Under the pieces are notes generated by a model. The model did no database searches and was not told the origin of the DNA. It was given only the letters and a program-made list of their open reading frames with translations. Of a DNA stretch of 63,013 nt, positions 3,887 through 62,453 are shown piece by piece; position 1 is the stretch's first letter; each line of letters starts with the position of its first letter. Origin of the DNA: an uncultured Dehalococcoidales bacterium. Lineage in GTDB: Bacteria; Chloroflexota; Dehalococcoidia; GIF9; AB-539-J10. The stretch spans positions 1-63,013 of the forward strand of contig CAYTBB010000002.1 of assembly GCA_964435965.1 (NCBI GenBank). The letters run 5' to 3'. The position numbers and the translations under genes were made by a program.

Positions 3887-5541
3887 ACCTACAGAGACCA
3901 AATGCAAATGATGCCACCAGAACTGCCAATCGCTCCAAGAACGTAGTGCCAATGAGCGGACTTTGCAGTCGCTGCATTGACGGCTGCACTGGAAACTGTG
4001 AGGTGTTCAAGGCAACTTTCCGTAGCCGGGAGCTAATCTATCCCGGACCCTTTGGCGAAGTTACCGCTGGTGCAGATAAGAACTATCCTGTTGATTACTC
4101 ACACCTTAATATCCAGGGGTATGCATTGGGAGCCAAAGGATTACCTGAAGGCACTATCGGTGACTCAGATACGGCTATTTTCCCGGCAGTAAACATGGAG
4201 ACTGAATACGGCTGGGATAGAAAAGTCAGGATGAGTATCCCCATATTCACCGGGGCGCTGGGTTCTACTGAGATAGCTCGCAAGAACTGGGAACATTTTG
4301 CTATCGGCGCTGCCCTAAGTGGAATTACCCTCGTCTGTGGCGAAAACGTCTGCGGTATGGACCCCCAGCTTGAACTCGATAGACACAGTAAGATTGTTTC
4401 TGCACCGGACATGGACCGTCGAATCGAAATCTACCGTCACTACCACAATGGTTACGGCGAAATCCTGGTACAGATGAATGTTGAGGATACCAGACTGGGT
4501 GTTGCTGAGTACGTAAGCCAGAAGCACGGGCTGGACACTATTGAGTTAAAATGGGGGCAGGGCGCCAAATGCATCGGCGGAGAGGTAAAGGTTAACAGCC
4601 TGGAACGAGCCCTGCAGCTTCAGAGGCGCGGCTATATTGTCACTCCCGACCCCTCACATCCCGTCAACCAGGCAGCTTTTAGGGACGGTGCTCTAAAAGA
4701 ATTTGAACGCCATAGTCGCCTCGGCTTCATTGATGAAGATGGTTTTCAAGCCGAGATCCAACGGCTCCGGAACTTGGGCTTTAAACGCATCACTCTGAAA
4801 ACAGGTGCCTACAGTCTGCGCGAGTTGGCAATGGCGATCAAGTGGGGCTCAAAGGCCGAGATTGACCTGTTGACCATAGACGGCGCTGGCGGCGGCACCG
4901 GGATGAGCCCCTGGCGCATGATGGAGGAATGGGGTATGCCCAGTCTCTATCTGCATTCCGCGGCCTATGAATTCTGTCAAAAGTTAGCTGAGAAAGGTGA
5001 ACGAGTACCCGATATTGCCTTCGGTGGTGGCTTCAGCAGTGAGGATGGTGTTTTTAAGGCGCTGGCCTTGGGCACACCCTTTACTAAGGCAGTATGTATG
5101 GGGCGAGCACTGATGATTCCGGGCATGGTCGGCAAGAATATCCAACAGTGGCTAGCTGAGGGCAAATTGCCGAATACCGTGGGCCAGTTTGGCTCAACTC
5201 CGGAGGAAATATTCGTCTGCTATGAAGATGTCAAGAACATAGTAGGCGTAAATGAAATGAAGAATATTCCTCTGGGTGCCATTGGAATCTATAGCTATGT
5301 CGAGAAGATAAAGGTTGGGTTGCAGCAGTTAATGGCCGGCACCAGGTGTTTTAGTGTGGCCGCAATTACGCGGCGGGAGCTCATGTCTCTCACTGAAGAA
5401 TGTGCCAGAGTCACTGGAATACCTTACTTAATGGATGCCTACCGTGACGAAGCAATGGAGATTCTGGATGGCAACCGCTATGCTCGTGTCAAAAGTAGTA
5501 TGCTGGGCAGCACTGAGTATCATGCCCCAGTTCCAAAATGA
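3883..5541 (+). CDS. FMN-binding glutamate synthase-related protein (GltS domain-2 paralog) with an N-terminal CX2CX3CX3C motif
   Basis: KWGQGAKCIGGE and DGAGGGTGMSP resemble the GltS FMN-domain signatures. There is an ATGA start/stop overlap with the upstream gene. Confidence 0.75.
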   Translation: MNLQRPNANDATRTANRSKNVVPMSGLCSRCIDGCTGNCEVFKATFRSRELIYPGPFGEVTAGADKNYPVDYSHLNIQGYALGAKGLPEGTIGDSDTAIFPAVNMETEYGWDRKVRMSIPIFTGALGSTEIARKNWEHFAIGAALSGITLVCGENVCGMDPQLELDRHSKIVSAPDMDRRIEIYRHYHNGYGEILVQMNVEDTRLGVAEYVSQKHGLDTIELKWGQGAKCIGGEVKVNSLERALQLQRRGYIVTPDPSHPVNQAAFRDGALKEFERHSRLGFIDEDGFQAEIQRLRNLGFKRITLKTGAYSLRELAMAIKWGSKAEIDLLTIDGAGGGTGMSPWRMMEEWGMPSLYLHSAAYEFCQKLAEKGERVPDIAFGGGFSSEDGVFKALALGTPFTKAVCMGRALMIPGMVGKNIQQWLAEGKLPNTVGQFGSTPEEIFVCYEDVKNIVGVNEMKNIPLGAIGIYSYVEKIKVGLQQLMAGTRCFSVAAITRRELMSLTEECARVTGIPYLMDAYRDEAMEILDGNRYARVKSSMLGSTEYHAPVPK

Positions 5542-12338: not shown

Positions 12339-13682
12339 ATGGCAAACAGAAGCAGAGAAGAAGGCAAGGAATATGTTCTCAAGATGGCAAAGGAGCATGG
12401 TGTAAAGTTCATCAGGATGTGGTTTACTGACATTCTGGGATTCCTCAAAAGCTTTGACATCACCGTGGAGGAACTAGAAGGCGCTCTGGAGGAGGGGATG
12501 GGGTTCGATGGCTCCTCAATCGAGGGGTTTGCCCGTATTGATGAAAGCGATATGGTGGCTCTACCTGACCCTGATACTTTCCAGCTACTTCCCGGGAAAC
12601 TCCGAGAGCAACACGCTATAGCCCGAATGTTTTGCGACGTCTTGAGCCCCGGTGGCGAGCCTTTTGAAGGCGATCCTAGGTATGTCCTGAAGAAAAACCT
12701 GAAGCGGGCAGCGAACATGGGTTACACCTATTATGTAGGGCCTGAGTTGGAGTACTTTTATTTTCGCGATTCTAATGGAACTGAGCCCCTAGACCAAGGG
12801 GGCTACTTCGATCTAACTCCCAGGGATGCAGCCATTGACATGAGGAAGGAGACCGTCCTTGCTCTGGAGGAGCTAGGTATCGGCGTTGAATATTCCCATC
12901 ACGAGGTTGCCACCAGCCAACACGAAATAGATATGAGGTACACCGATGCCCTGACCATGGCTGACAGTGTGATGACTTATCGCTTGGTGGTGAAAGAGGT
13001 GGCCCTCAAGTACGGGGTCTACGCCACCTTCATGCCGAAGCCAGTCTTCGGCATTAATGGCAGCGGCATGCATGTCCACCAGTCACTTTACAAGGGCGAC
13101 AGGAACGCCTTCTTTGACAAGGATGATGAATACCATCTGTCTAAGGTCGCGAGGCGTTTTGTAGCTGGATTACTCAAACATGCTCCTGAAATTACTTCGG
13201 TCACCAATCAGTGGATCAACTCCTATAAGCGGCTGGTTTCAGGCTACGAGGCGCCGGTGTACCTTTCTTGGGCGCGGCGGAATCGCTCCGACCTGATCCG
13301 AGTCCCAGAATATCGACCAGCCCGAGAAAAAGCAACAAGAATTGAATTCAGGTCTCCTGACCCTGCCTGCAATCCGTACCTAGCCTTCAGCGTAATGCTG
13401 GCGGCTGGGCTAGAAGGGATTGAGAAGGAGTACGAAGTCCCTGACCCTGTGGAAGAAAACGTATACGAGATGACCGGAGAGGAAAGGCAGAAGCGAGGAA
13501 TAGGCACCTTGCCTGCCAGCTTGCTGGAAGCCATACTGATAACTGAGAAAAGTGAGCTGGTGCGAAAGGCTCTTGGTGAACATGTTTTCTCGGCTTTCAT
13601 CCAGAACAAGAAAATAGAATGGGATCACTACCGGACTCAGGTAACCGAGTACGAGCTTAAGAGATACTTGCCAATATTGTGA
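12339..13682 (+). CDS. glnA: glutamine synthetase, type I
   Basis: VKFIRMWFTDILG, GFDGSSIEGF, NGSGMHVHQS and RIEFRSPD. AAAGGAGG RBS. Confidence 0.92.
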   Translation: MANRSREEGKEYVLKMAKEHGVKFIRMWFTDILGFLKSFDITVEELEGALEEGMGFDGSSIEGFARIDESDMVALPDPDTFQLLPGKLREQHAIARMFCDVLSPGGEPFEGDPRYVLKKNLKRAANMGYTYYVGPELEYFYFRDSNGTEPLDQGGYFDLTPRDAAIDMRKETVLALEELGIGVEYSHHEVATSQHEIDMRYTDALTMADSVMTYRLVVKEVALKYGVYATFMPKPVFGINGSGMHVHQSLYKGDRNAFFDKDDEYHLSKVARRFVAGLLKHAPEITSVTNQWINSYKRLVSGYEAPVYLSWARRNRSDLIRVPEYRPAREKATRIEFRSPDPACNPYLAFSVMLAAGLEGIEKEYEVPDPVEENVYEMTGEERQKRGIGTLPASLLEAILITEKSELVRKALGEHVFSAFIQNKKIEWDHYRTQVTEYELKRYLPIL

Positions 13683-54923: not shown

Positions 54924-55010
54924 CCAAGAATTCAGCCACCCAATGTCACCCTGAGCGAAGCCGAAGTGCTCCCTCAGAATGACACCAGAGTGAACGGTTA
55001 CTATTTCATC

Positions 55011-55051: not shown

Positions 55052-55128
55052 CGGGGCGTAGCGCAGTGTGGTAGCGCGCAGCGTTCGGGACGCTGAGGTC
55101 GGAGGTTCAAGTCCTCTCGCCCCGACCA
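55052..55128 (+). tRNA. tRNA-Pro (anticodon CGG), CCA encoded
   Basis: Hand fold. Acceptor CGGGGCG/CGCCCCG, D arm GCGC/GCGC, anticodon arm CAGCG-TTCGGGA-CGCTG, variable AGGTC, T arm GGAGG-TTCAAGT-CCTCT, then ACCA. Confidence 0.9.
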
Positions 55129-55146
55129 AGAGAACGGAGAGAAACT

Positions 55147-56226
55147 ATGCTAAAAGCTGTAATTGTGGGAGCCACGGGCATCGTCGGTCAGCAATTTCTC
55201 GTTGCCCTGAAAAACCACCCCTGGATTGAAATTGCCGCCCTTGCCGCCTCCGAGAGGTCAGCCGGCCACAGCTATAAGGAAGCTATAACCGAGGCTCAAT
55301 CCGGAGCCCTGCGCTGGTTTTGCCAGGAGCCTCCGGTAGAAGAAGTTATGGCAATGCCGGTGCAGAATGCCACCGAAATGGATATCTCCGCTATAGACAT
55401 CGTCTTCTCCGCTATAGAATCCGCCCCGGCGAAGGTCCTCGAACCGAAGTTTGCTAGCGACAAACCGGTTATAAGCACCGCTTCAGCCTTCCGCTATGAT
55501 GACGATGTGCCCATCCTGATCCCGGGCATCAATTCTGGACATACCAAACTGCTTGATATTCAAAGGAAGTCGCGGGGATGGAAGGGCTTCATTACACCCA
55601 TTCCCAACTGCACCACCACTGGCTTGGCAATATCACTAAAACCAATCTACCAGACCTTTGGTCTAAACGCTGTCGTAATGACTTCGCTGCAAGCTATATC
55701 AGGCGCAGGTCGAAGCCCTGGAGTGTTAGGCCTCGATATCCTGGACAATGTCATTCCCTTCATTCCAGGAGAAGAAGAAAAAGTGCAGCGCGAAACACAG
55801 AAAATCCTGGGCAATTTTGCCGGCACTTCAATCAGTCCGGCGAGATTTAACCTGAGCTGCACCTGTACCCGTGTTAACGTGCGGGAAGGGCATACGGAAT
55901 CGGTCTTCGCCTCTACCCAAAAAGCTTGTGACGTAAGCGATGTTGCCACGGCAATGAGGGAATTCGTCGGCTCGGCCGGTGAAGTCGACCTGCCTTCGGC
56001 CCCGAAGCACATGATAATCGTGCTCAATGACCCCTTCAGGCCTCAGCCACGGCTTGACCGTGATGCCGAAGGCGGCATGGCCACCGTGGTCGGCAGAATC
56101 AGGAAGGACACTGTCCTGGAAAATGGCATCAAGTATATCCTAGTGTCCCACAACACCAAGATGGGAGCTGCTAAAGGCGCAGTCCTTGTAGCTGAACTCC
56201 TTATCCGGGACGGATATATCTCTTAG
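55147..56226 (+). CDS. asd: aspartate-semialdehyde dehydrogenase (archaeal-like type)
   Basis: [13 protein letters not shown], active-site [15 protein letters not shown] and SHNTKMGAA. Confidence 0.88.
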
Positions 56227-56416
56227 ACGCTACCTCACCCCTCTACAAATTTGATATATCCTCCTTCCAATAAGCGCAAACTTCATGGTAGAATAGTGAC
56301 GGCTCTCAATCAGCATCCGTAAGATGCAGCATAGCTGCAGAGATTACAACAAACAGCAATGCGCCATTGCGGAAAGAGTATTTCAGGAGGATTTCCAGGT
56401 GAAGGGAAAACGTGAT

Positions 56417-56830
56417 ATGCCAAAGAGTAAAATTTGGAGAGGAAAACGAGGTGCACTGGTATTGGTGGCTTTGATATTAGCTACCATAGTGGTGCTATTA
56501 CCGGGGTGTGGGCAACATACATATACCCAAACCATCAAAATTGCCGTTGAACCTGTAGACGGTAGTGGCCTTCTGGTAAGAATCGAGTGCTACCGTGATA
56601 GCGAAGTGGTGAATTCTATACGTTTTGTTGATGGGAATGGTGATAGCATTATTGATGGAAAATCAGGTCCTAAAGAGGAAGGCCACTGGCCCAAGGGTTG
56701 GGAATGGTTTGATGCTCTACATAATGATGTCATCATAGGAGCCTCCACGATAGAAGTAGTGGGCGAGAAAATAAAAATCCAGGATAGCACCACCTATGAG
56801 TTTCTGCCAGGTGAGTATGAGTGCGGATGA
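56417..56830 (+). CDS. small predicted lipoprotein, function unknown
   Basis: Signal peptide plus lipobox: ..LVLVALILATIVVLLPGC. The start was set at ATG 56417. A TGgTAGAAT extended -10-like box lies upstream near 56340. Confidence 0.55.
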   Translation: MPKSKIWRGKRGALVLVALILATIVVLLPGCGQHTYTQTIKIAVEPVDGSGLLVRIECYRDSEVVNSIRFVDGNGDSIIDGKSGPKEEGHWPKGWEWFDALHNDVIIGASTIEVVGEKIKIQDSTTYEFLPGEYECG

Positions 56831-56880
56831 GGTGGATGAAACAATTGAGCCTTCCGCCCGTGGTGCAGCCTAACAGAACA

Positions 56881-56930
56881 CAGCGTTCAAGACACTGAGG
56901 ACGAAGGTTCAAATCCCCCCACCCCGGTCT
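56881..56930 (+). repeat. tRNA-Pro 3'-fragment copy F1 (anticodon stem to acceptor 3' side)
   Basis: cagcgttcaagacactgaggacgaaggttcaaatccccccaccccggtct. Gapless alignment to tRNA-Pro 55079-55128, 38 of 50 identical by hand count. No 5' half is present. Confidence 0.8.
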
Positions 56931-56978
56931 AATAAGGAAGTGGGGCACGATTGGTCTACTTCCGCATTCCCTGGGTAT

Positions 56979-58193
56979 TTATTCTAACGGCAGGTCATAA
57001 ATGCGCCAGGTCTTGTAGCGCTGCGCCCCCATGAACTCCGAAGGGCGCAGAATCATGTTGTTATTCTCCAAGAGCATGGAGGCCTCACATTTGCGGTAGC
57101 CCCGCTGGATTGCGTATTCCTTGACCTCGTCGAAGAGGAGAGCATCAATCCCCAGGCGGCGGAAGCCGGGACGAATCCCGAAGAACATTAACCGGGCACA
57201 GGGAATGCGCCGTCGCATCCAGAGTAGCCTGGCCACACGCACCAGGTCCGAGTCACCATACCAGCGCCAGCGCGGTCGCAGGGCATAATAGGGGTCAGGG
57301 AAAACCCCCAGGACAGCAGCCGGCTCACCCCGGAGGAAAGCAAAGCGGATCAGTCCCGGGTCCACGATCAGGCGTAGGGAAGCCGCTAAGGTCGCCGCTT
57401 CCTCATCGGTGATGGGCAGAAACCCCCAGTTCTGAGCCCGGGCCTCGTTATAGATCTTCACTATCAGATGTACCTCAGCAAGCAATTCTTTGAGGACCAG
57501 TGGCCGGGTTTCGATCCCCCGGCGCAGCCGCACCTGTTTTGCCAGCCTCTTCAGTCGGGGAGGAGCAGGGGTTTGTATATCCAGTGTGTAGGCGTAGTAA
57601 TCCTTAGCCTTATGGAAACCATAGCGCTCCAGGAATTCGCCGTAGTAAGGGGGATTGTGTGTCAACTCCATCGTTGGGGGGTATTGAAATCCGTCTACCA
57701 GGATGCCCTGGCGTTCATGGGTGGCGTTGGAGTACTCCCCGGGGCCGCGCAGGATCGCCATCCGGCGGTCTTTTACCCACTCCCGTGCCCGGTCTAGCAG
57801 GGCCTTGGCGACTTCGTAGTCCTCGATAACTTCCCAAAAACCGAAGAAGCCGAAGCGAACGCCATAGTAGTTGTTGAAGCGGTGGTTGATGGCTGCCGAG
57901 ATCCGACCTACTGGCTGCTCCCCACGCCAGGCTAGAAAATGGGTAACCTCCGCGTGGCGATGGTAGGGATGCTCCCGGGTCAGCAGGCCAACCAGGCCAA
58001 GGAGGTGATTGCCGAGCAGGTCGCCTCGCAGAGGTGGGGTCCAGCAAGGGTCACTTCGATAGAGACGCCAGGGGAAGTCGGCAAAGACCTTCATCCGGGA
58101 GGCTCCTAGGGGGATCTCCTCGATCTTCAGGGGCACTTGAGCTACGGCAGACCTCCGCATAGGACGAGTCCCGCATATTATACCAGACGCCAC
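56979..58193 (-). CDS. GNAT-like two-domain N-acyltransferase-family protein (copy 1), specific function unknown
   Basis: The C-terminal part has a GNAT-like core (FGIRPGFRRLGIDALLFDEV..AIQRGYRKCEASMLLENNNMI). The gene is visibly more GC-rich than its neighbours. Confidence 0.5.
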   Translation of the reverse strand: MASGIICGTRPMRRSAVAQVPLKIEEIPLGASRMKVFADFPWRLYRSDPCWTPPLRGDLLGNHLLGLVGLLTREHPYHRHAEVTHFLAWRGEQPVGRISAAINHRFNNYYGVRFGFFGFWEVIEDYEVAKALLDRAREWVKDRRMAILRGPGEYSNATHERQGILVDGFQYPPTMELTHNPPYYGEFLERYGFHKAKDYYAYTLDIQTPAPPRLKRLAKQVRLRRGIETRPLVLKELLAEVHLIVKIYNEARAQNWGFLPITDEEAATLAASLRLIVDPGLIRFAFLRGEPAAVLGVFPDPYYALRPRWRWYGDSDLVRVARLLWMRRRIPCARLMFFGIRPGFRRLGIDALLFDEVKEYAIQRGYRKCEASMLLENNNMILRPSEFMGAQRYKTWRIYDLPLE

Positions 58194-58323
58194 AAGCCCA
58201 AATATCTACTCATGCTTAAATAAACTCTGGATTGTAGAGCCAGGTCGCCTCCGTATCCACGAAGAGACAGGCCGCGAGTAATCCCTCGTAGGGCGTGAAA
58301 AACAGCCAGAATTTGCAACAGTA

Positions 58324-58373
58324 CAGCCTTCCGGACGTTGAGGGCAGAGGTTCAAATCCTCTCGCCCCGGCTA
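58324..58373 (+). repeat. tRNA-Pro 3'-fragment copy F2
   Basis: cagccttccggacgttgagggcagaggttcaaatcctctcgccccggcta. 42 of 50 identical to tRNA-Pro by hand count. The T arm AGAGG/CCTCT is intact and the acceptor 3' strand CGCCCCG is identical. Confidence 0.8.
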
Positions 58374-58421
58374 CCTTTGAGCATTGCTTTTGGAATAATC
58401 TAGGACTTGACTACCCAGTTG

Positions 58422-59075
58422 CTACCTAACAACTTCACAGACCTCTTCAAACGGTCGGAGTTCCTTGGGAGCTGGACTTTCAGCCGGATAACCAACGGGT
58501 ATGAACGCGACGAAATCCATCTCAGGAGGCACACGGAGAACTTTTTCTATTTCTCTCTTGGCCTGTATGGGGCCTGTCATCCATATTGCTCCCAAACCCA
58601 TCTGGTGCAAAATCAAGAGCAAATAGGCAATAGATGAAGCTACAGATTGGATGCGGGTGTTAGATATGTCACGCCACTCACGTATCTGGCCTGCCTCGGG
58701 GTCAATTTTCTCCCGGGCAGCTAAAATCTGATCCACCTCTGACTGATACCGCCCCGCCGCCACCGCAATAGCTGCCGGCGCATTGCGGAAAAAACTCGCC
58801 TTCACTCGCATTCTGGCAGCAACATCCCGGAACTTACCGGCTTCTGGCCAGGAGGCTATTTGCTCAGCCCTGGCCTGAACCGCATCGCTGATGGCAGTGA
58901 TAATGTCATGATTAACAATAACATAAAAGTGCCAGTTTTGCTTATTGCCCCCGCTAGGTGCCCATGTCGCCAGCTTGACAGCCTGTGTCAACAACTCTTC
59001 GGGGACTCCCTTCTCTTCCCAGCGGCGGATAGAACGCCGGCCTCTGATGAGCTTTTCCAGATCCACAAATTCCAT
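58422..59075 (-). CDS. nitroreductase-family protein
   Basis: MEFVDLEKLIRGRRSIRRWEEKGVP.., APSGGNKQNW and ..IPVGYPAE. The start was trimmed to ATG 59075. Confidence 0.8.
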   Translation of the reverse strand: MEFVDLEKLIRGRRSIRRWEEKGVPEELLTQAVKLATWAPSGGNKQNWHFYVIVNHDIITAISDAVQARAEQIASWPEAGKFRDVAARMRVKASFFRNAPAAIAVAAGRYQSEVDQILAAREKIDPEAGQIREWRDISNTRIQSVASSIAYLLLILHQMGLGAIWMTGPIQAKREIEKVLRVPPEMDFVAFIPVGYPAESPAPKELRPFEEVCEVVR

Positions 59076-59148
59076 CGGTATACCCTCCTTCTTTAATCTT
59101 TGGTAGCCATTGTAGCAAACGCCGTTATTGAACCACAAATCGCCTAGA

Positions 59149-59274
59149 TTAACCAACTGCCTTTCTCCTCTGCCTCTTGATGGTCAGCACTATGCTGCCG
59201 ACTGCTCCCACCAGAAAAACAGGCGGGCAAAGGAAAACAGCAATGCAGAAGGATGCCACACTAAGGGCTTCCAT
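59149..59274 (-). CDS. 41-aa single-TM micro-ORF
   Basis: Hand translation gives MEALSVASFCIAVFLCPPVFLVGAVGSIVLTIKRQRRKAVG. It has a hydrophobic core and a basic tail. It sits between the 104-aa membrane ORF and the nitroreductase. Confidence 0.3.
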   Translation of the reverse strand: MEALSVASFCIAVFLCPPVFLVGAVGSIVLTIKRQRRKAVG

Positions 59275-59282
59275 CAAACGGC

Positions 59283-59597
59283 TTAATACAGCGACGTGAT
59301 TGGTAATTTTATGCCCAAAGCATGAAAGGCGTTGTGCAAGAAGACAAAGAGTCTTTCAATTGATGCTCCCAGTAGGATTAGAAACTTCTTCAACTCTTGC
59401 CGGGTGAGCGTCAATGCAATGACTGGAACGGCAGCCGCCAGGCAGCATAGAACTATGCCTAGAATATTATCACTAACTCCAACGAGAATAGCAGCTATCA
59501 CCAGCGCACAGAATATCGCCGCCGGAATGAGTGTTGTTTTTCGATTTCTTTTTAGTGCCCAGAACTGCCCCTGGAAAAATCTTTTCAGTATATTCAC
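59283..59597 (-). CDS. small membrane protein, function unknown
   Basis: 104 aa with two clear hydrophobic helices. Its GTG start overlaps the TGA of an upstream small ORF (GTGA). Confidence 0.45.
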   Translation of the reverse strand: MNILKRFFQGQFWALKRNRKTTLIPAAIFCALVIAAILVGVSDNILGIVLCCLAAAVPVIALTLTRQELKKFLILLGASIERLFVFLHNAFHALGIKLPITSLY

Positions 59598-60239
59598 TTC
59601 CGAAGAACAATTCTAGCACCTGGAATAGCTATTACCAAAGCTGCAACAATGAATATCCACCCAGTCCACATCAGCAAACAGCCAGTAGCAGGCCCAGGCC
59701 TACACCAAAGAGAAACTTACCGGTGATATGCATACTAAAGTAGGGGGTCGGTACCTGTCTAACCTTTTCCACCTTAGCACTAAACCAACTCATCGTTCAC
59801 CTCCTCTTTTTGATGGCCTAGCAGTCATACTGGTAATCGGAGTCAATGAATCTTGATACCACAGCCATTTTTGCTTCTCCCCTTGTCATTGCGAGGCCTG
59901 TCCCGAGCGAAGCGAGGGAACTCGACGAAGCAATCTCAAGAAATCCCCGTCAATCGTAGTGCGACCCTTCAGGCCTTGCTTCTCTCCATTGCCACGGAAA
60001 TTACCAGGACGATAAAATAGAGCGTTGTTGGAATAGCTTAGGACTGTATCACAACCAGCCATCAGAACAAGCCAAACGATCAGACTTTCCAAATTCAAGC
60101 CATTATTATTGCCTAAAATACCGCATGAGCCCACGGTTGCAAAGCTTGCACTAAAGACGATATCCCCTGAAAACAGATAGTTGGAATGAGCGACATTCTT
60201 ATCCGTGAGTATTTTGGCGTAGATTTGGAGGAAGGGGCA

Positions 60240-60289
60240 CAGCGTTCAAGACACTGAGGACGAAGGTTCAAATCCCCCCACCCCGGTCT
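60240..60289 (+). repeat. tRNA-Pro 3'-fragment copy F3 (identical to F1, part of duplication copy B)
   Basis: Same 50-mer as 56881-56930. Confidence 0.8.
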
Positions 60290-60337
60290 AATAAGGAAGT
60301 GGGGCACGATTGGTCTACTTCCGCATTCCCTGGGTAT

Positions 60338-61552
60338 TTATTCTAACGGCAGGTCATAAATGCGCCAGGTCTTGTAGCGCTGCGCCCCCATGAACTCCGA
60401 AGGGCGCAGAATCATGTTGTTATTCTCCAAGAGCATGGAGGCCTCACATTTGCGGTAGCCCCGCTGGATTGCGTATTCCTTGACCTCGTCGAAGAGGAGA
60501 GCATCAATCCCCAGGCGGCGGAAGCCGGGACGAATCCCGAAGAACATTAACCGGGCACAGGGAATGCGCCGTCGCATCCAGAGTAGCCTGGCCACACGCA
60601 CCAGGTCCGAGTCACCATACCAGCGCCAGCGCGGTCGCAGGGCATAATAGGGGTCAGGGAAAACCCCCAGGACAGCAGCCGGCTCACCCCGGAGGAAAGC
60701 AAAGCGGATCAGTCCCGGGTCCACGATCAGGCGTAGGGAAGCCGCTAAGGTCGCCGCTTCCTCATCGGTGATGGGCAGAAACCCCCAGTTCTGAGCCCGG
60801 GCCTCGTTATAGATCTTCACTATCAGATGTACCTCAGCAAGCAATTCTTTGAGGACCAGTGGCCGGGTTTCGATCCCCCGGCGCAGCCGCACCTGTTTTG
60901 CCAGCCTCTTCAGTCGGGGAGGAGCAGGGGTTTGTATATCCAGTGTGTAGGCGTAGTAATCCTTAGCCTTATGGAAACCATAGCGCTCCAGGAATTCGCC
61001 GTAGTAAGGGGGATTGTGTGTCAACTCCATCGTTGGGGGGTATTGAAATCCGTCTACCAGGATGCCCTGGCGTTCATGGGTGGCGTTGGAGTACTCCCCG
61101 GGGCCGCGCAGGATCGCCATCCGGCGGTCTTTTACCCACTCCCGTGCCCGGTCTAGCAGGGCCTTGGCGACTTCGTAGTCCTCGATAACTTCCCAAAAAC
61201 CGAAGAAGCCGAAGCGAACGCCATAGTAGTTGTTGAAGCGGTGGTTGATGGCTGCCGAGATCCGACCTACTGGCTGCTCCCCACGCCAGGCTAGAAAATG
61301 GGTAACCTCCGCGTGGCGATGGTAGGGATGCTCCCGGGTCAGCAGGCCAACCAGGCCAAGGAGGTGATTGCCGAGCAGGTCGCCTCGCAGAGGTGGGGTC
61401 CAGCAAGGGTCACTTCGATAGAGACGCCAGGGGAAGTCGGCAAAGACCTTCATCCGGGAGGCTCCTAGGGGGATCTCCTCGATCTTCAGGGGCACTTGAG
61501 CTACGGCAGACCTCCGCATAGGACGAGTCCCGCATATTATACCAGACGCCAC
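60338..61552 (-). CDS. GNAT-like two-domain N-acyltransferase-family protein (copy 2, identical protein)
   Basis: The 404-aa translation is identical to 56979-58193. Confidence 0.5.
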   Translation of the reverse strand: MASGIICGTRPMRRSAVAQVPLKIEEIPLGASRMKVFADFPWRLYRSDPCWTPPLRGDLLGNHLLGLVGLLTREHPYHRHAEVTHFLAWRGEQPVGRISAAINHRFNNYYGVRFGFFGFWEVIEDYEVAKALLDRAREWVKDRRMAILRGPGEYSNATHERQGILVDGFQYPPTMELTHNPPYYGEFLERYGFHKAKDYYAYTLDIQTPAPPRLKRLAKQVRLRRGIETRPLVLKELLAEVHLIVKIYNEARAQNWGFLPITDEEAATLAASLRLIVDPGLIRFAFLRGEPAAVLGVFPDPYYALRPRWRWYGDSDLVRVARLLWMRRRIPCARLMFFGIRPGFRRLGIDALLFDEVKEYAIQRGYRKCEASMLLENNNMILRPSEFMGAQRYKTWRIYDLPLE

Positions 61553-61682
61553 AAGCCCAAATATCTACTCATGCTTAAATAAACTCTGGATTGTAGAGCC
61601 AGGTCGCCTCCGTATCCACGAAGAGACAGGCCGCGAGTAATCCCTCGTAGGGAGTGAAAAACAGCCAGAATTTGCAACAGTA

Positions 61683-61732
61683 CATCGTTCAAGACGCTGA
61701 AGTCGGAAGCTCAAATTTGGTCGCCCTGACCA
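61683..61732 (+). repeat. tRNA-Pro 3'-fragment copy F4
   Basis: catcgttcaagacgctgaagtcggaagctcaaatttggtcgccctgacca. 38 of 50 identical by hand count. It keeps the ACCA end and the same trailing AGA as the genuine tRNA. Confidence 0.7.
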
Positions 61733-61740
61733 AGAAAGGG

Positions 61741-61923
61741 TTATTGCCCAAGCCACTCCTCCCTGGCAACTCCGATCTCTCTGCGATGCGGGTTGGGAAT
61801 AGTCAATACTAAGCTTCCTTTTATCATGTAGGGGTGTTTCCCGCCTCGATAAGGTCCCTCAAATCCAAGCTTGCGAATTCGCCTTATCAACTCTGCCCAA
61901 GAAACAGGTGAAAGTTCAGCCAC
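61741..61923 (-). CDS. hicA: HicA-family toxin (mRNA interferase)
   Basis: ..SWAELIRRIRKLGFEGPYRGGKHPYMIKG..VLTIPNPHRREIG. 60 aa, overlapping the upstream hicB by 8 nt. Confidence 0.7.
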   Translation of the reverse strand: MAELSPVSWAELIRRIRKLGFEGPYRGGKHPYMIKGSLVLTIPNPHRREIGVAREEWLGQ

Positions 61924-62170
61924 TGACTTTCAAAGTTTTGAGTCCCTCTATTTTGTGTTCACCTATAGAAGGAATGCTTAATCCCTTTCTAAGCCTTACC
62001 ACAAGCCAACCATCAATGACCTCAGCTAAATTACGACGGCATTCCTCAAGTGTTTTACCTGTAGCCCATACGCCTTCAAGCTCTGGGACCTCTCCATAGT
62101 ATGGCTCTTCATCCTCAATGATTTCATATCTTGCCCTACTCACAGCAGCCTCAATATACTGTGTAATCAA
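61916..62170 (-). CDS. hicB: HicB-family antitoxin (UPF0150 fold)
   Basis: ..YEIIEDEEPYYGEVPELEGVWATGKTLEECRRNLAEVIDGWL.., the typical HicB N-terminal domain pattern. Confidence 0.7.
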   Translation of the reverse strand: MITQYIEAAVSRARYEIIEDEEPYYGEVPELEGVWATGKTLEECRRNLAEVIDGWLVVRLRKGLSIPSIGEHKIEGLKTLKVSG

Positions 62171-62338
62171 TTTTCACCTCTTCTATTAGCTTATCCCTAT
62201 CCCCTGCGCGATTTACATCCAGCCAATATTGCGCTTGCTTATTATAGCTTGAATGGCTACTTGAGAGCAACACGCACGCTACCTTGGCAACAATAATCAA
62301 GACACTTATAATAGATTCAGCCCACAGGCTGGAGGGCA

Positions 62339-62388
62339 CAGCCTTCGAAACGCTGAGGGCGGCGGGTCAAACCCCCTCACCCCGGGCC
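62339..62388 (+). repeat. tRNA-Pro 3'-fragment copy F5
   Basis: cagccttcgaaacgctgagggcggcgggtcaaaccccctcaccccgggcc. 37 of 50 identical by hand count, gapless. Confidence 0.65.
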
Positions 62389-62401: not shown

Positions 62402-62453
62402 AAAAACTACCGTACTACTAGCGGGATTTGGAGGAAATACCCCGCGCTAGTAG
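62402..62453 (-). terminator. candidate intrinsic terminator of the small - strand gene at 62529-62804
   Basis: Long GC-rich hairpin CTACTAGCGGG...CCCGCGCTAGTAG (62415-62453). On the - strand a T5 run (62406-62402) follows after 8 nt. Confidence 0.45.

Follow-up and report, generated by a model that had tools for sequence, protein, structure and literature searches.

An array of tRNA-Pro-derived repeats downstream of asd in Dehalococcoidales: a probable integration hotspot for small gene units

Genomic islands at tRNA genes are textbook elements, which usually span tens of kilobases and carry their own integrase. Composite islands of the staphylococcal cassette chromosome (SCC) type hold ccr-less pseudo-SCC units that are flanked by attachment (att) sites, stand in tandem and are believed to be moved in trans, and toxin-antitoxin cassettes are frequent in integron arrays. 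Here, we analyzed a 63,013-nt stretch of DNA (the window; forward strand of contig CAYTBB010000002.1, assembly GCA_964435965.1) from an uncultured Dehalococcoidales bacterium, in which an intact tRNA-Pro(CGG) gene and the aspartate-semialdehyde dehydrogenase gene asd are followed by an array of tRNA-Pro-derived repeats with small gene units between them. The closest precedent is provided by the tandem ssrA islands of Dehalococcoides, for which a CcrB-like serine integrase, 15 islands without an integration module and a conserved motif 5' of each repeat have been described (McMurdie et al. 2011; PMC3146451). The Islander survey of tDNA islands required an integrase and a length of 2-200 kb for each island, and arrays of at least three islands accounted for 4 of its 3,919 candidates (PMC4383910). 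In a full-text literature search, cassette arrays built from tRNA fragments were not found to have been described.

A gapless scan with the last 50 nt of tRNA-Pro exactly reproduced the five direct, gap-free copies (F1-F5) that a preliminary description of the window had counted by hand, with 38, 42, 38, 38 and 37 of 50 positions identical on the + strand and start-to-start spacings of 1802, 1443, 1916, 1443 and 656 bp. All remaining positions of the window reach at most 27-29 of 50 on either strand, the 29 belonging to an unrelated tRNA-Ile, and with an nhmmer profile six copies scored 38.8-55.9 bits (next best match in the window, 3.1 bits). The pseudo-anticodons of F1-F5 (CAA, CCG, CAA, CAA and CGA) and the 3' end of F4 (ACCA followed by AGA) are likewise as first described. 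The array does not end at F5 but extends beyond the window end to at least one further copy, F'.

Related metagenome, viral and metagenome-assembled genome (MAG) contigs or loci were compared with the window (L001-L136), and about 50 Dehalococcoidia MAG loci were gathered by an asd protein search and looked at over ±10-kb flanks. Beyond the live tRNA, profile matches occur in some of these relatives (L001, L003, L027, L029 and L052; also L093/L094, L129-L136 and L086-L088), solely downstream of tRNA-Pro/asd and always on the same strand. Neither the 63-kb window (both strands) nor the upstream flanks of the ~50 relatives contain extra tRNA-Pro copies elsewhere, and a metagenome scan (241 million records) for the F1/F4 type returned four contigs, three of them this locus and one a partial, chance-like match. 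These results rule out a dispersed repeat family, which had been named beforehand as a finding that would refute the first interpretation, and support the view that the 50-mers are tRNA-Pro-derived att-site copies tied to one locus. Independent assemblies of other samples (L085/L090, a 40.5-kb SPAdes contig; L086, a MEGAHIT contig; L092, a JGI contig) contain every array junction at ≥99% identity, and the array is therefore not an assembly artefact. The window's population is represented in samples ERZ25073496, ERZ27251135, ERZ25073474, JGI 3300011118 and JGI 3300007871.

The clearest evidence on how the array is built comes from a unit that carries a GNAT-like gene and is present twice. The two copies are identical over 1,447 nt except for a single mismatch at position 58294, which confirms the recent duplication previously noticed between one pair of repeats; the GC content of the first copy is 57.6% compared to 47% in the core, and the edges of the duplicated unit coincide with the F starts to within -2 to +2 on either side. 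Two relatives at ~87-90% nucleotide identity, L134 and L135, contain no GNAT sequence anywhere in their contigs. After the lipoprotein gene of L134, the decayed tRNA 5' half that lies left of the first GNAT unit in the window (5'A) is joined directly to an F copy with the 3' flank and downstream context of F2, followed by an HTH_17-PemK pair and then the nitroreductase gene. Further along L134, and in L135, a second decayed 5' half (5'B) abuts an F copy without interruption, and the hicA flank located after F4 in the window comes next. Because both sites are uninterrupted in these relatives, both window copies are insertions of one 1,443-bp unit into two decayed full-length tRNA-Pro copies, T_A (5'A plus F2) and T_B (5'B plus F4), at equivalent positions of the two; the GNAT unit is thereby shown to be a discrete insert. 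The junction of GNAT unit, arm and F4 is also present in L093/L094 (~90% identical to the window), and the T_B insertion is therefore the older one; the near-identical copy at T_A is very recent.

The identity shared by the two GNAT units begins with CACAGCG... and ends with ...CAGTACA. Since CA is the sole string that is both a prefix of the former and a suffix of the latter, the overlap at the crossover is at most 2 bp. The crossover lies at tRNA positions 25-28, at the junction of D stem and anticodon stem; the anticodon-loop crossover originally proposed does not hold for these recent inserts and applies only to an ancient copy (F0) located directly after asd. Transposon-like ends or target duplications were also considered for the GNAT unit and rejected, as no terminal inverted repeats were seen by inspection.

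We consider it probable that the locus is a long-lived site-specific integration hotspot of integrase-less, cassette-like elements that are moved in trans. Under this hypothesis, the live tRNA-Pro(CGG) would be followed by a chain of displaced, decaying tRNA-Pro copies, some full length and some consisting of 3' parts only, and small units would have been repeatedly inserted into, lost from or moved among these copies. Each unit would comprise one gene or one toxin-antitoxin operon, with a tRNA-Pro-like 3' segment on its left and a short arm on its right that is either tRNA-5'-half-like or of the 'TTGCAACA' type. The units encode no recombinase and are organised like cis-mobilizable elements or cassettes; their mover would be encoded elsewhere. 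A circular intermediate would carry an attP-like site composed of arm, CA and F1, with the predicted GNAT circle junction reading ...GCAACAGTA-CA-CAGCGTTCAAG... (also ...GAATTTGCAACAGTA-CA-CAGCGTTCAAGACACTG...), and the predicted empty sites would be ...CCTAACAGAA-CA-GCCTTCCGGACG... for T_A and ...GGAGGAAGGGG-CA-TCGTTCAAGACG... for T_B. The recombinase would act on a simple site with strand exchange over ~2 bp, as serine recombinases do, and we infer that such an enzyme is the natural candidate, since an overlap of 2 bp, units of small size and an arm that is short and conserved would all agree with it. Older layers would have used other crossover points (37/38 for the asd unit, 43/44 for the lipoprotein block); because these points differ between layers, more than one recombinase has probably been at work over time.

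The asd layer is best seen in relatives. In L001, L003, L027, L029, L052 and L129, tRNA positions 38-76 (F0), which start at the edge of the anticodon loop, directly follow the asd stop codon, and a decayed F0 stands at the same place in L019/L020 and L022-L026. In the window, a five-nucleotide trace is all that is left of F0, and the lipoprotein block is joined at tRNA position 43/44; L021 has the same junction (TAGACGCTG, then the lipoprotein promoter region), and L008 has a different junction at the same post-asd point. Together with the last 39 nt of the tRNA, asd thus behaves like a segment of 1.17 kb that has direct repeats on both sides and is either present at the site or absent from it. 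In L136, the tRNA is followed directly by the hicAB flank and asd is absent at the site, having been either lost or never present there. The tRNA-Pro(CGG) gene lies directly upstream of asd in ~30 of the ~50 Dehalococcoidia loci, an ancestral adjacency; asd and the lipoprotein gene are not one module, and asd may be expressed by read-through from the tRNA promoter. Outside Dehalococcoidia, the closest asd relatives in the genome collection come from Bathyarchaeia, Nitrososphaeria, Binatia and deltaproteobacterial MAGs (61-68% identity), and in more distant Dehalococcoidia asd is not located beside tRNA-Pro; this fits relocation to, or acquisition at, the tRNA-Pro site. In L134, a lone 26-nt copy of the tRNA T arm and acceptor end (4887-4912) is found in a ~170-nt insert between the live tRNA (4943-5016) and asd, and looks like the scar of an event with another crossover point.

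Since asd still begins 18 nt after the live tRNA, the later insertions went into displaced, decayed copies further down the array, and the idea that serial scars were laid down at the live tRNA has to be abandoned. This order also bears on the main rival explanation, a graveyard of classical islands, in which phage-like or integrative and conjugative element (ICE)-like elements with their own tyrosine integrases would have integrated serially at tRNA-Pro and then been whittled by deletion, so that the F copies would be inert attR scars and the small modules the end state of decay. Displaced tRNA 3' fragments 3' of an intact tRNA are the standard signature of islands (PMC4383910, PMC9897764). 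Fragments of the tRNA-Pro 3' end that start in the anticodon stem-loop, as expected of att sites, are common in IMG/VR viral contigs, an observation that also counts as a precedent for the hotspot, and F0, too, begins at the anticodon loop. The stems of the F copies are decayed, their pseudo-anticodons differ, and deletions have left remnants, namely the 3' end of PemK in the window, part of hicA in L052 and a piece of an IS3-type transposase in L001. However, serial accretion at a functional gene is contradicted by the position of asd and by insertions in displaced copies, no integrase remnant was found in five related arrays, and random whittling would not be expected to leave one 1,443-bp unit twice, each time with boundaries exact to the nucleotide, an empty counterpart in a relative and an overlap of ≤2 bp. 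Serial decay accounts for the scars, not for the twice-inserted unit with its empty sites, and we regard it as possible but rather unlikely as an explanation of the locus.

The state of the tRNA copies themselves adds to the picture. It had been stated that none of the copies has a 5' half. For F1, this proved wrong: the Rfam tRNA model can be aligned over its full length to 56859-56927 (cmscan, 19.9 bits, E = 2.4), and in the tRNA-like fold six of seven acceptor pairs form, including a compensatory U6-A67. When alignments were anchored at the F edge and compared to 20,000 random window positions, the decayed 5' half upstream of F1 obtained p = 0.024 and F' p = 0.011, several copies in relatives ranged from 0.0002 to 0.004, and F3 (p = 0.066) and F5 (p = 0.16) showed weaker traces. 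Upstream of F2 and F4 the statement stands, as no 5' half was found by anchored alignment (p = 0.35); a common 18-nt arm, CCAGAATTTGCAACAGTA (the CCAGAATTTGCAAYAGYA arm), occupies this place instead. The arm was found in seven loci, always directly 5' of an F copy, among them L052, which lacks the GNAT gene, and its motif had no match in IMG/VR viral contigs. The uninterrupted T_B-type site of L135 includes a 64-nt stretch that is 89% identical to the live tRNA, and the F5 orthologue in L093/L094 is a full-length tRNA-Pro-like copy called by ARAGORN. Some of the supposed 3' fragments are, or once were, full-length tRNA-Pro copies.

At the tRNA-like site 5' of hicA (L134 558-606; L135 513-562), about 9 of 50 positions differ between L134 and L135 inside the F copy, with near-identical flanks. 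All of these differences fall between the anticodon loop and the variable loop, and at several of them the sequence is nearer to the live tRNA than to the orthologue, which suggests patchy conversion or repeated site exchange.

Patchy conversion of this kind is also what an explanation without any site-specific enzyme would invoke. The tRNA-like repeats would then merely offer short homology for RecA-dependent unequal crossing-over, ectopic gene conversion or homology-facilitated illegitimate recombination, and the intervening DNA would be shuffled, duplicated and deleted. Apart from the sharply differing F cores of the otherwise near-identical L134 and L135, it is favored by several same-orientation repeats of 50-77 nt within 8 kb, by the full-length copy of L093, whose ~45 nt of upstream flank from the live tRNA suggest chromosomal copying, and by a tandem or circular 5-kb repeat, described below, with one boundary away from any F copy. 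Yet the GNAT boundaries stand at the extreme edge of the repeat, with a shared identity of 2 bp and outside the longest identical stretch; the flanks of the two sites are only ~50-70% alike (5'A versus 5'B; F2 versus F4, 33/50), which is too little for homologous exchange, and no flanking bases were co-converted. Unequal crossing-over would moreover have duplicated the nitroreductase block, which is single, and we consider this explanation improbable. Selection on the tRNA-like pieces as processing sites, terminators or regulatory tRNA mimics for neighbouring genes is very improbable, for although TTCAAAT, the core of the T loop, and some of the acceptor strand are better preserved than the rest of the copies, the stems have not kept their pairing (3-5 of 5 pairs in T stems, without a compensatory pattern), most neighbouring genes lie on the opposite strand, no Rfam family except tRNA matches, and copies at orthologous sites diverge faster than their flanks.

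Further support for an integration hotspot comes from the remaining units (Table 1), which are variably present and reshuffled across relatives. Such module-level polymorphism, proposed beforehand as a check, was observed for asd and for the hicAB, HEPN/MNT and HTH-MazF units. The F copy with its hicA flank follows the live tRNA in L136, F0 in L129 and L052, and T_B in the window, L134 and L135. In L136, the displaced copy equals the host tRNA over 45 consecutive nucleotides, including a lineage-specific T-loop base, which points to a young event. The right-arm end of the hicAB unit is a decayed tRNA D-arm, which is well preserved in L129. The HTH_17-PemK unit and its F copy share 89.6% identity over 811 nt between L134 and L086, but occupy different places, after the lipoprotein gene in L134 and after MacB in L086, which represents the window's own population; where L134 has this unit, the window retains ~32 nt of the PemK 3' end. 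A 1.3-kb HEPN/MNT unit, absent from the window, lies directly 5' of the F5 orthologue in L093/L094; the extra segment consists of an F copy, the HEPN/MNT-type pair and a well-preserved tRNA 5' half that retains ~45 nt of the live tRNA's upstream flank, and both of its ends are at gcaCAG. In L129-L132, the order is tRNA, asd, F0, hicAB, tRNA-like copy, KE gene, F copy and BrxC/D-like defence genes, and in L130 a methylase/NOV_C/SNF2 cluster forms the array end. The resemblance to a cassette array, remarked on at the outset, is a fair one, as the small integrase-less units behave as discrete inserts.

Table 1 Features of the tRNA-Pro array in the window, with the basis of each assignment.
Feature	Coordinates	Strand	Basis and remarks
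tRNA-Pro(CGG), intact, array anchor	55052-55128	+	ARAGORN; Rfam tRNA model 65.4 bits; position 5' of asd kept in ~30 Dehalococcoidia loci
asd (aspartate-semialdehyde dehydrogenase)	55147-56226	+	Pfam PF01118, PF02774; starts 18 nt after tRNA
ACGCT, last trace of F0 (tRNA positions 38-42); lipoprotein block joined here	56227-56231	+	Alignment of the sequence after the asd stop across loci
Small lipoprotein-like gene (signal peptide with Cys)	56324-56830	+	Pfam: no match; homologues after asd in L021, L134
5'A, decayed tRNA 5' half; with F2 once full-length pseudo-tRNA T_A	56859-56880	+	cmscan; p = 0.024; L134 joins it directly to F2 orthologue
GNAT unit copy 1: F1, GNAT gene 56979-58193 (-), arm CCAGAATTTGCAACAGTA 58306-58323	56879-58325		Near-identical to copy 2; site empty in L134
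F1	56881-56930	+	38/50; left end of GNAT unit copy 1
F2, original 3' part of pseudo-tRNA T_A, displaced by GNAT copy 1	58324-58373	+	42/50; 3' flank (CCTT...) and context common to L134 site-A copy
PemK/MazF toxin gene, 3'-end remnant	58379-58410	+	Homologous to end of PemK gene at the same place in L134
Nitroreductase	58422-59156	-	Pfam PF00881; same family after F0 in L027, also in L134 array
Small membrane ORFs after nitroreductase	59283-59597, 59671-59793	-	Two ORFs
5'B, decayed tRNA 5' half (has GGCGTAG); with F4 once pseudo-tRNA T_B	60213-60239	+	p = 0.066; L134, L135 join it directly to F4 orthologue
GNAT unit copy 2: F3, GNAT gene 60338-61552 (-), arm 61665-61682	60238-61684		GNAT-arm-F4 junction also in L093, L094
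F3	60240-60289	+	38/50; left end of GNAT unit copy 2
F4	61683-61732	+	38/50; left end of hicAB unit; 3' part of T_B
hicAB unit: F4, hicA 61741-61923 (-), hicB 61916-62170 (-), right arm 62196-62338	61683-62338		Pfam PF07927, PF21748
F5, 3' part of pseudo-tRNA T_C	62339-62388	+	37/50; L093/L094 orthologue full length
Small lysine/glutamate-rich (KE) gene, 91 aa	62529-62804	-	Pfam: no match; first gene of next unit, running past window; bounded by further F copy in L129, L130

In L052, a 9-nt direct repeat (TGCAGCATG) at 12601-12611 and 13655-13665 flanks a ~1.05-kb mazEF block, a hint that this block entered the array in the manner of a transposon and not through an att site.

A Pfam scan of the array open reading frames (ORFs) and the unclear upstream ORFs gave no recombinase domain (including PF00589), and none was seen on reading the translations of the other upstream ORFs. 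The early claim that the window holds no integrase thus stands for the window itself, although the array runs past its end. Inspection of translations likewise gave no recombinase in the related arrays L052, L129-L136, L093 and L086. Two candidates were rejected: the 549-aa and 195-aa pair of L002, which resembles DsiB/DsiA by size, does not consist of recombinases by sequence inspection, the large asd-adjacent ORFs of relatives being secreted or metabolic, and the HTH_17 gene beside F' is not an excisionase, as it is the antitoxin of the overlapping PemK/MazF gene. At the opposite end of the window, an 83-aa ORF (80-331, -) overlaps the 3' end of tRNA-Ile; its homologues are short and named 'site-specific DNA recombinase', two of them with PF07508. 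By its sequence, it looks like the C-terminal remnant of a large serine recombinase at a tRNA gene, which would show that such enzymes acted at tRNA genes in this lineage, with no evidence for action on the tRNA-Pro array. The ORF next to it (390-875, -) is DUF5677, and tRNA-Ile fragments, which would mark a left-end island, are absent from the rest of the window.

Several observations weigh against a hotspot served by an enzyme in trans. The recombinase, its central actor, is hypothetical, and none was found in the ~5 kb past the window end or within 10 kb of the locus in the ~50 relatives. The Islander paper names tyrosine integrases as the sole class of enzyme known to target tRNA genes (PMC4383910). 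Crossover points vary by layer (26/27, 37/38 and 43/44), which several unrelated events would fit equally well. GNAT homologues elsewhere are ordinary chromosomal genes: at 79-87% nucleotide identity, they lie in three other contexts without F copy and without arm, so that travel of the GNAT gene as a cassette elsewhere is not supported, and a hotspot does not account for the joining of this gene to an att site. Between genomes, the units are no more alike than the core (hicAB 86%, toxin-antitoxin unit 89.6%), and recent horizontal spread is not indicated. Contigs at ≥99% identity, which represent the window's own population in at least four samples, share a single arrangement, and neither a circular junction of an F-bounded unit nor an empty site was seen among them.

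A more far-reaching proposal, which we hold to be doubtful, is that an active integron-like cassette system operates in some Dehalococcoidia. A trans-acting recombinase, probably of the serine type and exchanging at CA, would take up, excise and re-insert single-gene units with tRNA-Pro-mimic sites, the live tRNA and its copies would form a docking platform, and asd would be a fixed first cassette that benefits from tRNA-promoter read-through. If true, a serine recombinase targeting a tRNA gene would be new, as the Islander authors know of no such case. In this array, single genes or single toxin-antitoxin pairs are gained and lost, and the docking sites are decaying tRNA copies. If an enzyme acting in trans is responsible, this would add a second and independent means of integron-like gene shuffling, in a lineage whose genomes are small and poor in classical mobile elements; it would challenge the rule that tyrosine integrases alone act at tRNA genes, and it would provide a compact natural attachment-site pair that is directly testable. 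Loci of this kind will escape island finders that call for an integrase and set a minimum length. That an essential biosynthetic gene such as asd is bracketed by a tRNA and a displaced copy is a small curiosity with regard to core genes entering such platforms.

The surroundings of the array are conserved. ARAGORN and Rfam identified two tRNA genes in the window, tRNA-Ile (61-137) and the tRNA-Pro, and the DNA upstream of the latter is core genome (ribosomal protein operons, EF-G, GyrA, aspartokinase, and purine and histidine genes); the core identity of most upstream ORFs was read from their translations, only the unclear ones being scanned with Pfam. Nearest to the 5' side of tRNA-Pro are genes for a phosphoglycerate mutase and a TPR protein (both Pfam), followed by aspartokinase and GyrA, whose identities come from precomputed Pfam data for the same contig and a reading of the translations. 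In gene-order maps of relatives, the core is conserved on both sides and asd is separated from the following core gene by zero to four unrelated genes, so that the DNA behind asd is variable throughout the clade.

On the distal side, ~5 kb were recovered past the window end (L085, L086), encoding an ABC ATPase (ABC_tran) and a MacB/FtsX permease, followed by F' and the HTH_17-PemK pair. In L086 (1-5166), L087 and L088, the ~5.0-kb segment from window position 62425 onward comprises the KE gene, the ABC ATPase, the MacB permease, F' and HTH_17-PemK, after which the KE gene starts anew. The PemK-to-KE junction is present in three assemblies and represents a tandem duplication or a circular form; the left boundary of the segment lies 36 nt after F5, away from the F edge. 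In close relatives, the distal array end (L129-L132 1-6062; L130 801-6037) abuts defence-type clusters, either BrxC/BrxD-like genes with DUF87 or an N6_N4 methylase with NOV_C and an SNF2 helicase, and the ABC/MacB transporter of the window's population stands where relatives have these clusters. Short, GC-rich, palindromic intergenic repeats of REP/MITE-like appearance (window 59884-59950 and 54935-54985; L003 3846-3894; L052 ~12470-12500) are of the types ...cattgcgagg...cgaagcaatc... and ...gtcaccctgagcgaagc...cagaatgac..., and look unrelated to the tRNA copies.

Among viral sequences, the IMG/VR entry UViG 3300040744_000152 (41,983 bp; L096, L122) contains the tRNA-Pro 3' 31-mer twice on the same strand, once 22 nt from the contig start, as would be expected from a provirus integrated at tRNA-Pro. 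A further 33 viral stretches match this 31-mer, mostly fragments, with GC contents from 38% to 71%.

Compared to described systems, the locus most resembles the Dehalococcoides ssrA islands, which occur in the same bacterial class. There, too, the 3' end of a small stable-RNA gene is repeated many times downstream in the same orientation, these direct repeats delimit tandem islands, and about half of these islands lack an integration module and were proposed to be cis-mobilizable (PMC3146451), just as the units described here are without a recombinase. A conserved non-target motif just 5' of each ssrA repeat has its counterpart in the 18-nt arm, and insertion at ssrA was inferred to occur at a single phosphodiester position without a long overlap (PMC3146451). 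The two systems differ in the target, which is ssrA with a 20-bp repeat and insertion in the T loop in one case, and tRNA-Pro with copies of 50-77 nt and exchange at the D-stem/anticodon-stem junction in the other. The window contains no tmRNA in an Rfam search at gathering threshold, and its repeats derive from tRNA-Pro, so this is not a case of ssrA integration. They differ also in size, since the ssrA islands are in the SCC size range (PMC3146451) and hence much larger than the 0.66-3.4 kb units found here. Sixteen identified ssrA islands carry the serine recombinases DsiB/DsiA (PMC3146451), whereas a DsiB/DsiA module next to attL is absent from the array, the only related sequence being the 83-aa serine-recombinase tail beside tRNA-Ile. 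Duplicate islands within one strain do not occur at ssrA, unlike the GNAT unit, which is present twice.

The array likewise resembles cis-mobilizable elements (CIMEs) and the tRNA-linked accretion of ICEs and integrative and mobilizable elements (IMEs), in which att-flanked tandem units without a recombinase are thought to be moved in trans by a cognate enzyme (concept as cited in PMC3146451). The GNAT, hicAB, HEPN/MNT and HTH-PemK units are all flanked by att-type repeats and free of recombination and transfer genes. However, known CIMEs are deletion derivatives of identifiable ICEs with an integrase nearby, whereas the units of this array are single operons with no known parent element or enzyme. 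With Islander tDNA islands, the locus shares an intact tRNA gene with same-orientation displaced 3' fragments downstream (PMC4383910). It departs from them in that no integrase was found and the repeat spacings are 656-1916 bp, below the 2-200 kb range. With regard to the three Islander subsites, namely the anticodon loop, the T loop and the T/acceptor junction (PMC4383910), the locus is mixed: F0 begins at position 38, at the edge of the anticodon loop (the common 'A' subsite), and the GNAT crossover at positions 25-28 falls outside all three.

As in integron arrays, many tiny units (one gene or one toxin-antitoxin pair) are each associated with one recombination site, cassettes are duplicated, and none has its own recombinase. 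Unlike integrons, the array has neither IntI nor attI beside it, and its sites are tRNA-derived instead of attC hairpins (cmscan up to E = 10 gave only tRNA and chance snoRNA-like matches). The genes also stand in both orientations, several of them opposite to the sites, which from orientation alone suggests a need for their own promoters. In Prochlorococcus, several ~48-bp copies of a tRNA-Pro 3' end reportedly occur in a hypervariable island and are said to have been read by Coleman and colleagues in 2006 as marks left by recurrent integration; insertion of a whole unit, with empty sites to match, is not known to have been shown there. In conclusion, tandem accretion at a stable-RNA gene with cis-mobilizable units is known, while single-operon units, docking in displaced pseudo-tRNAs, a crossover outside the described subsites and an essential gene as the first bracketed unit are new at this locus.

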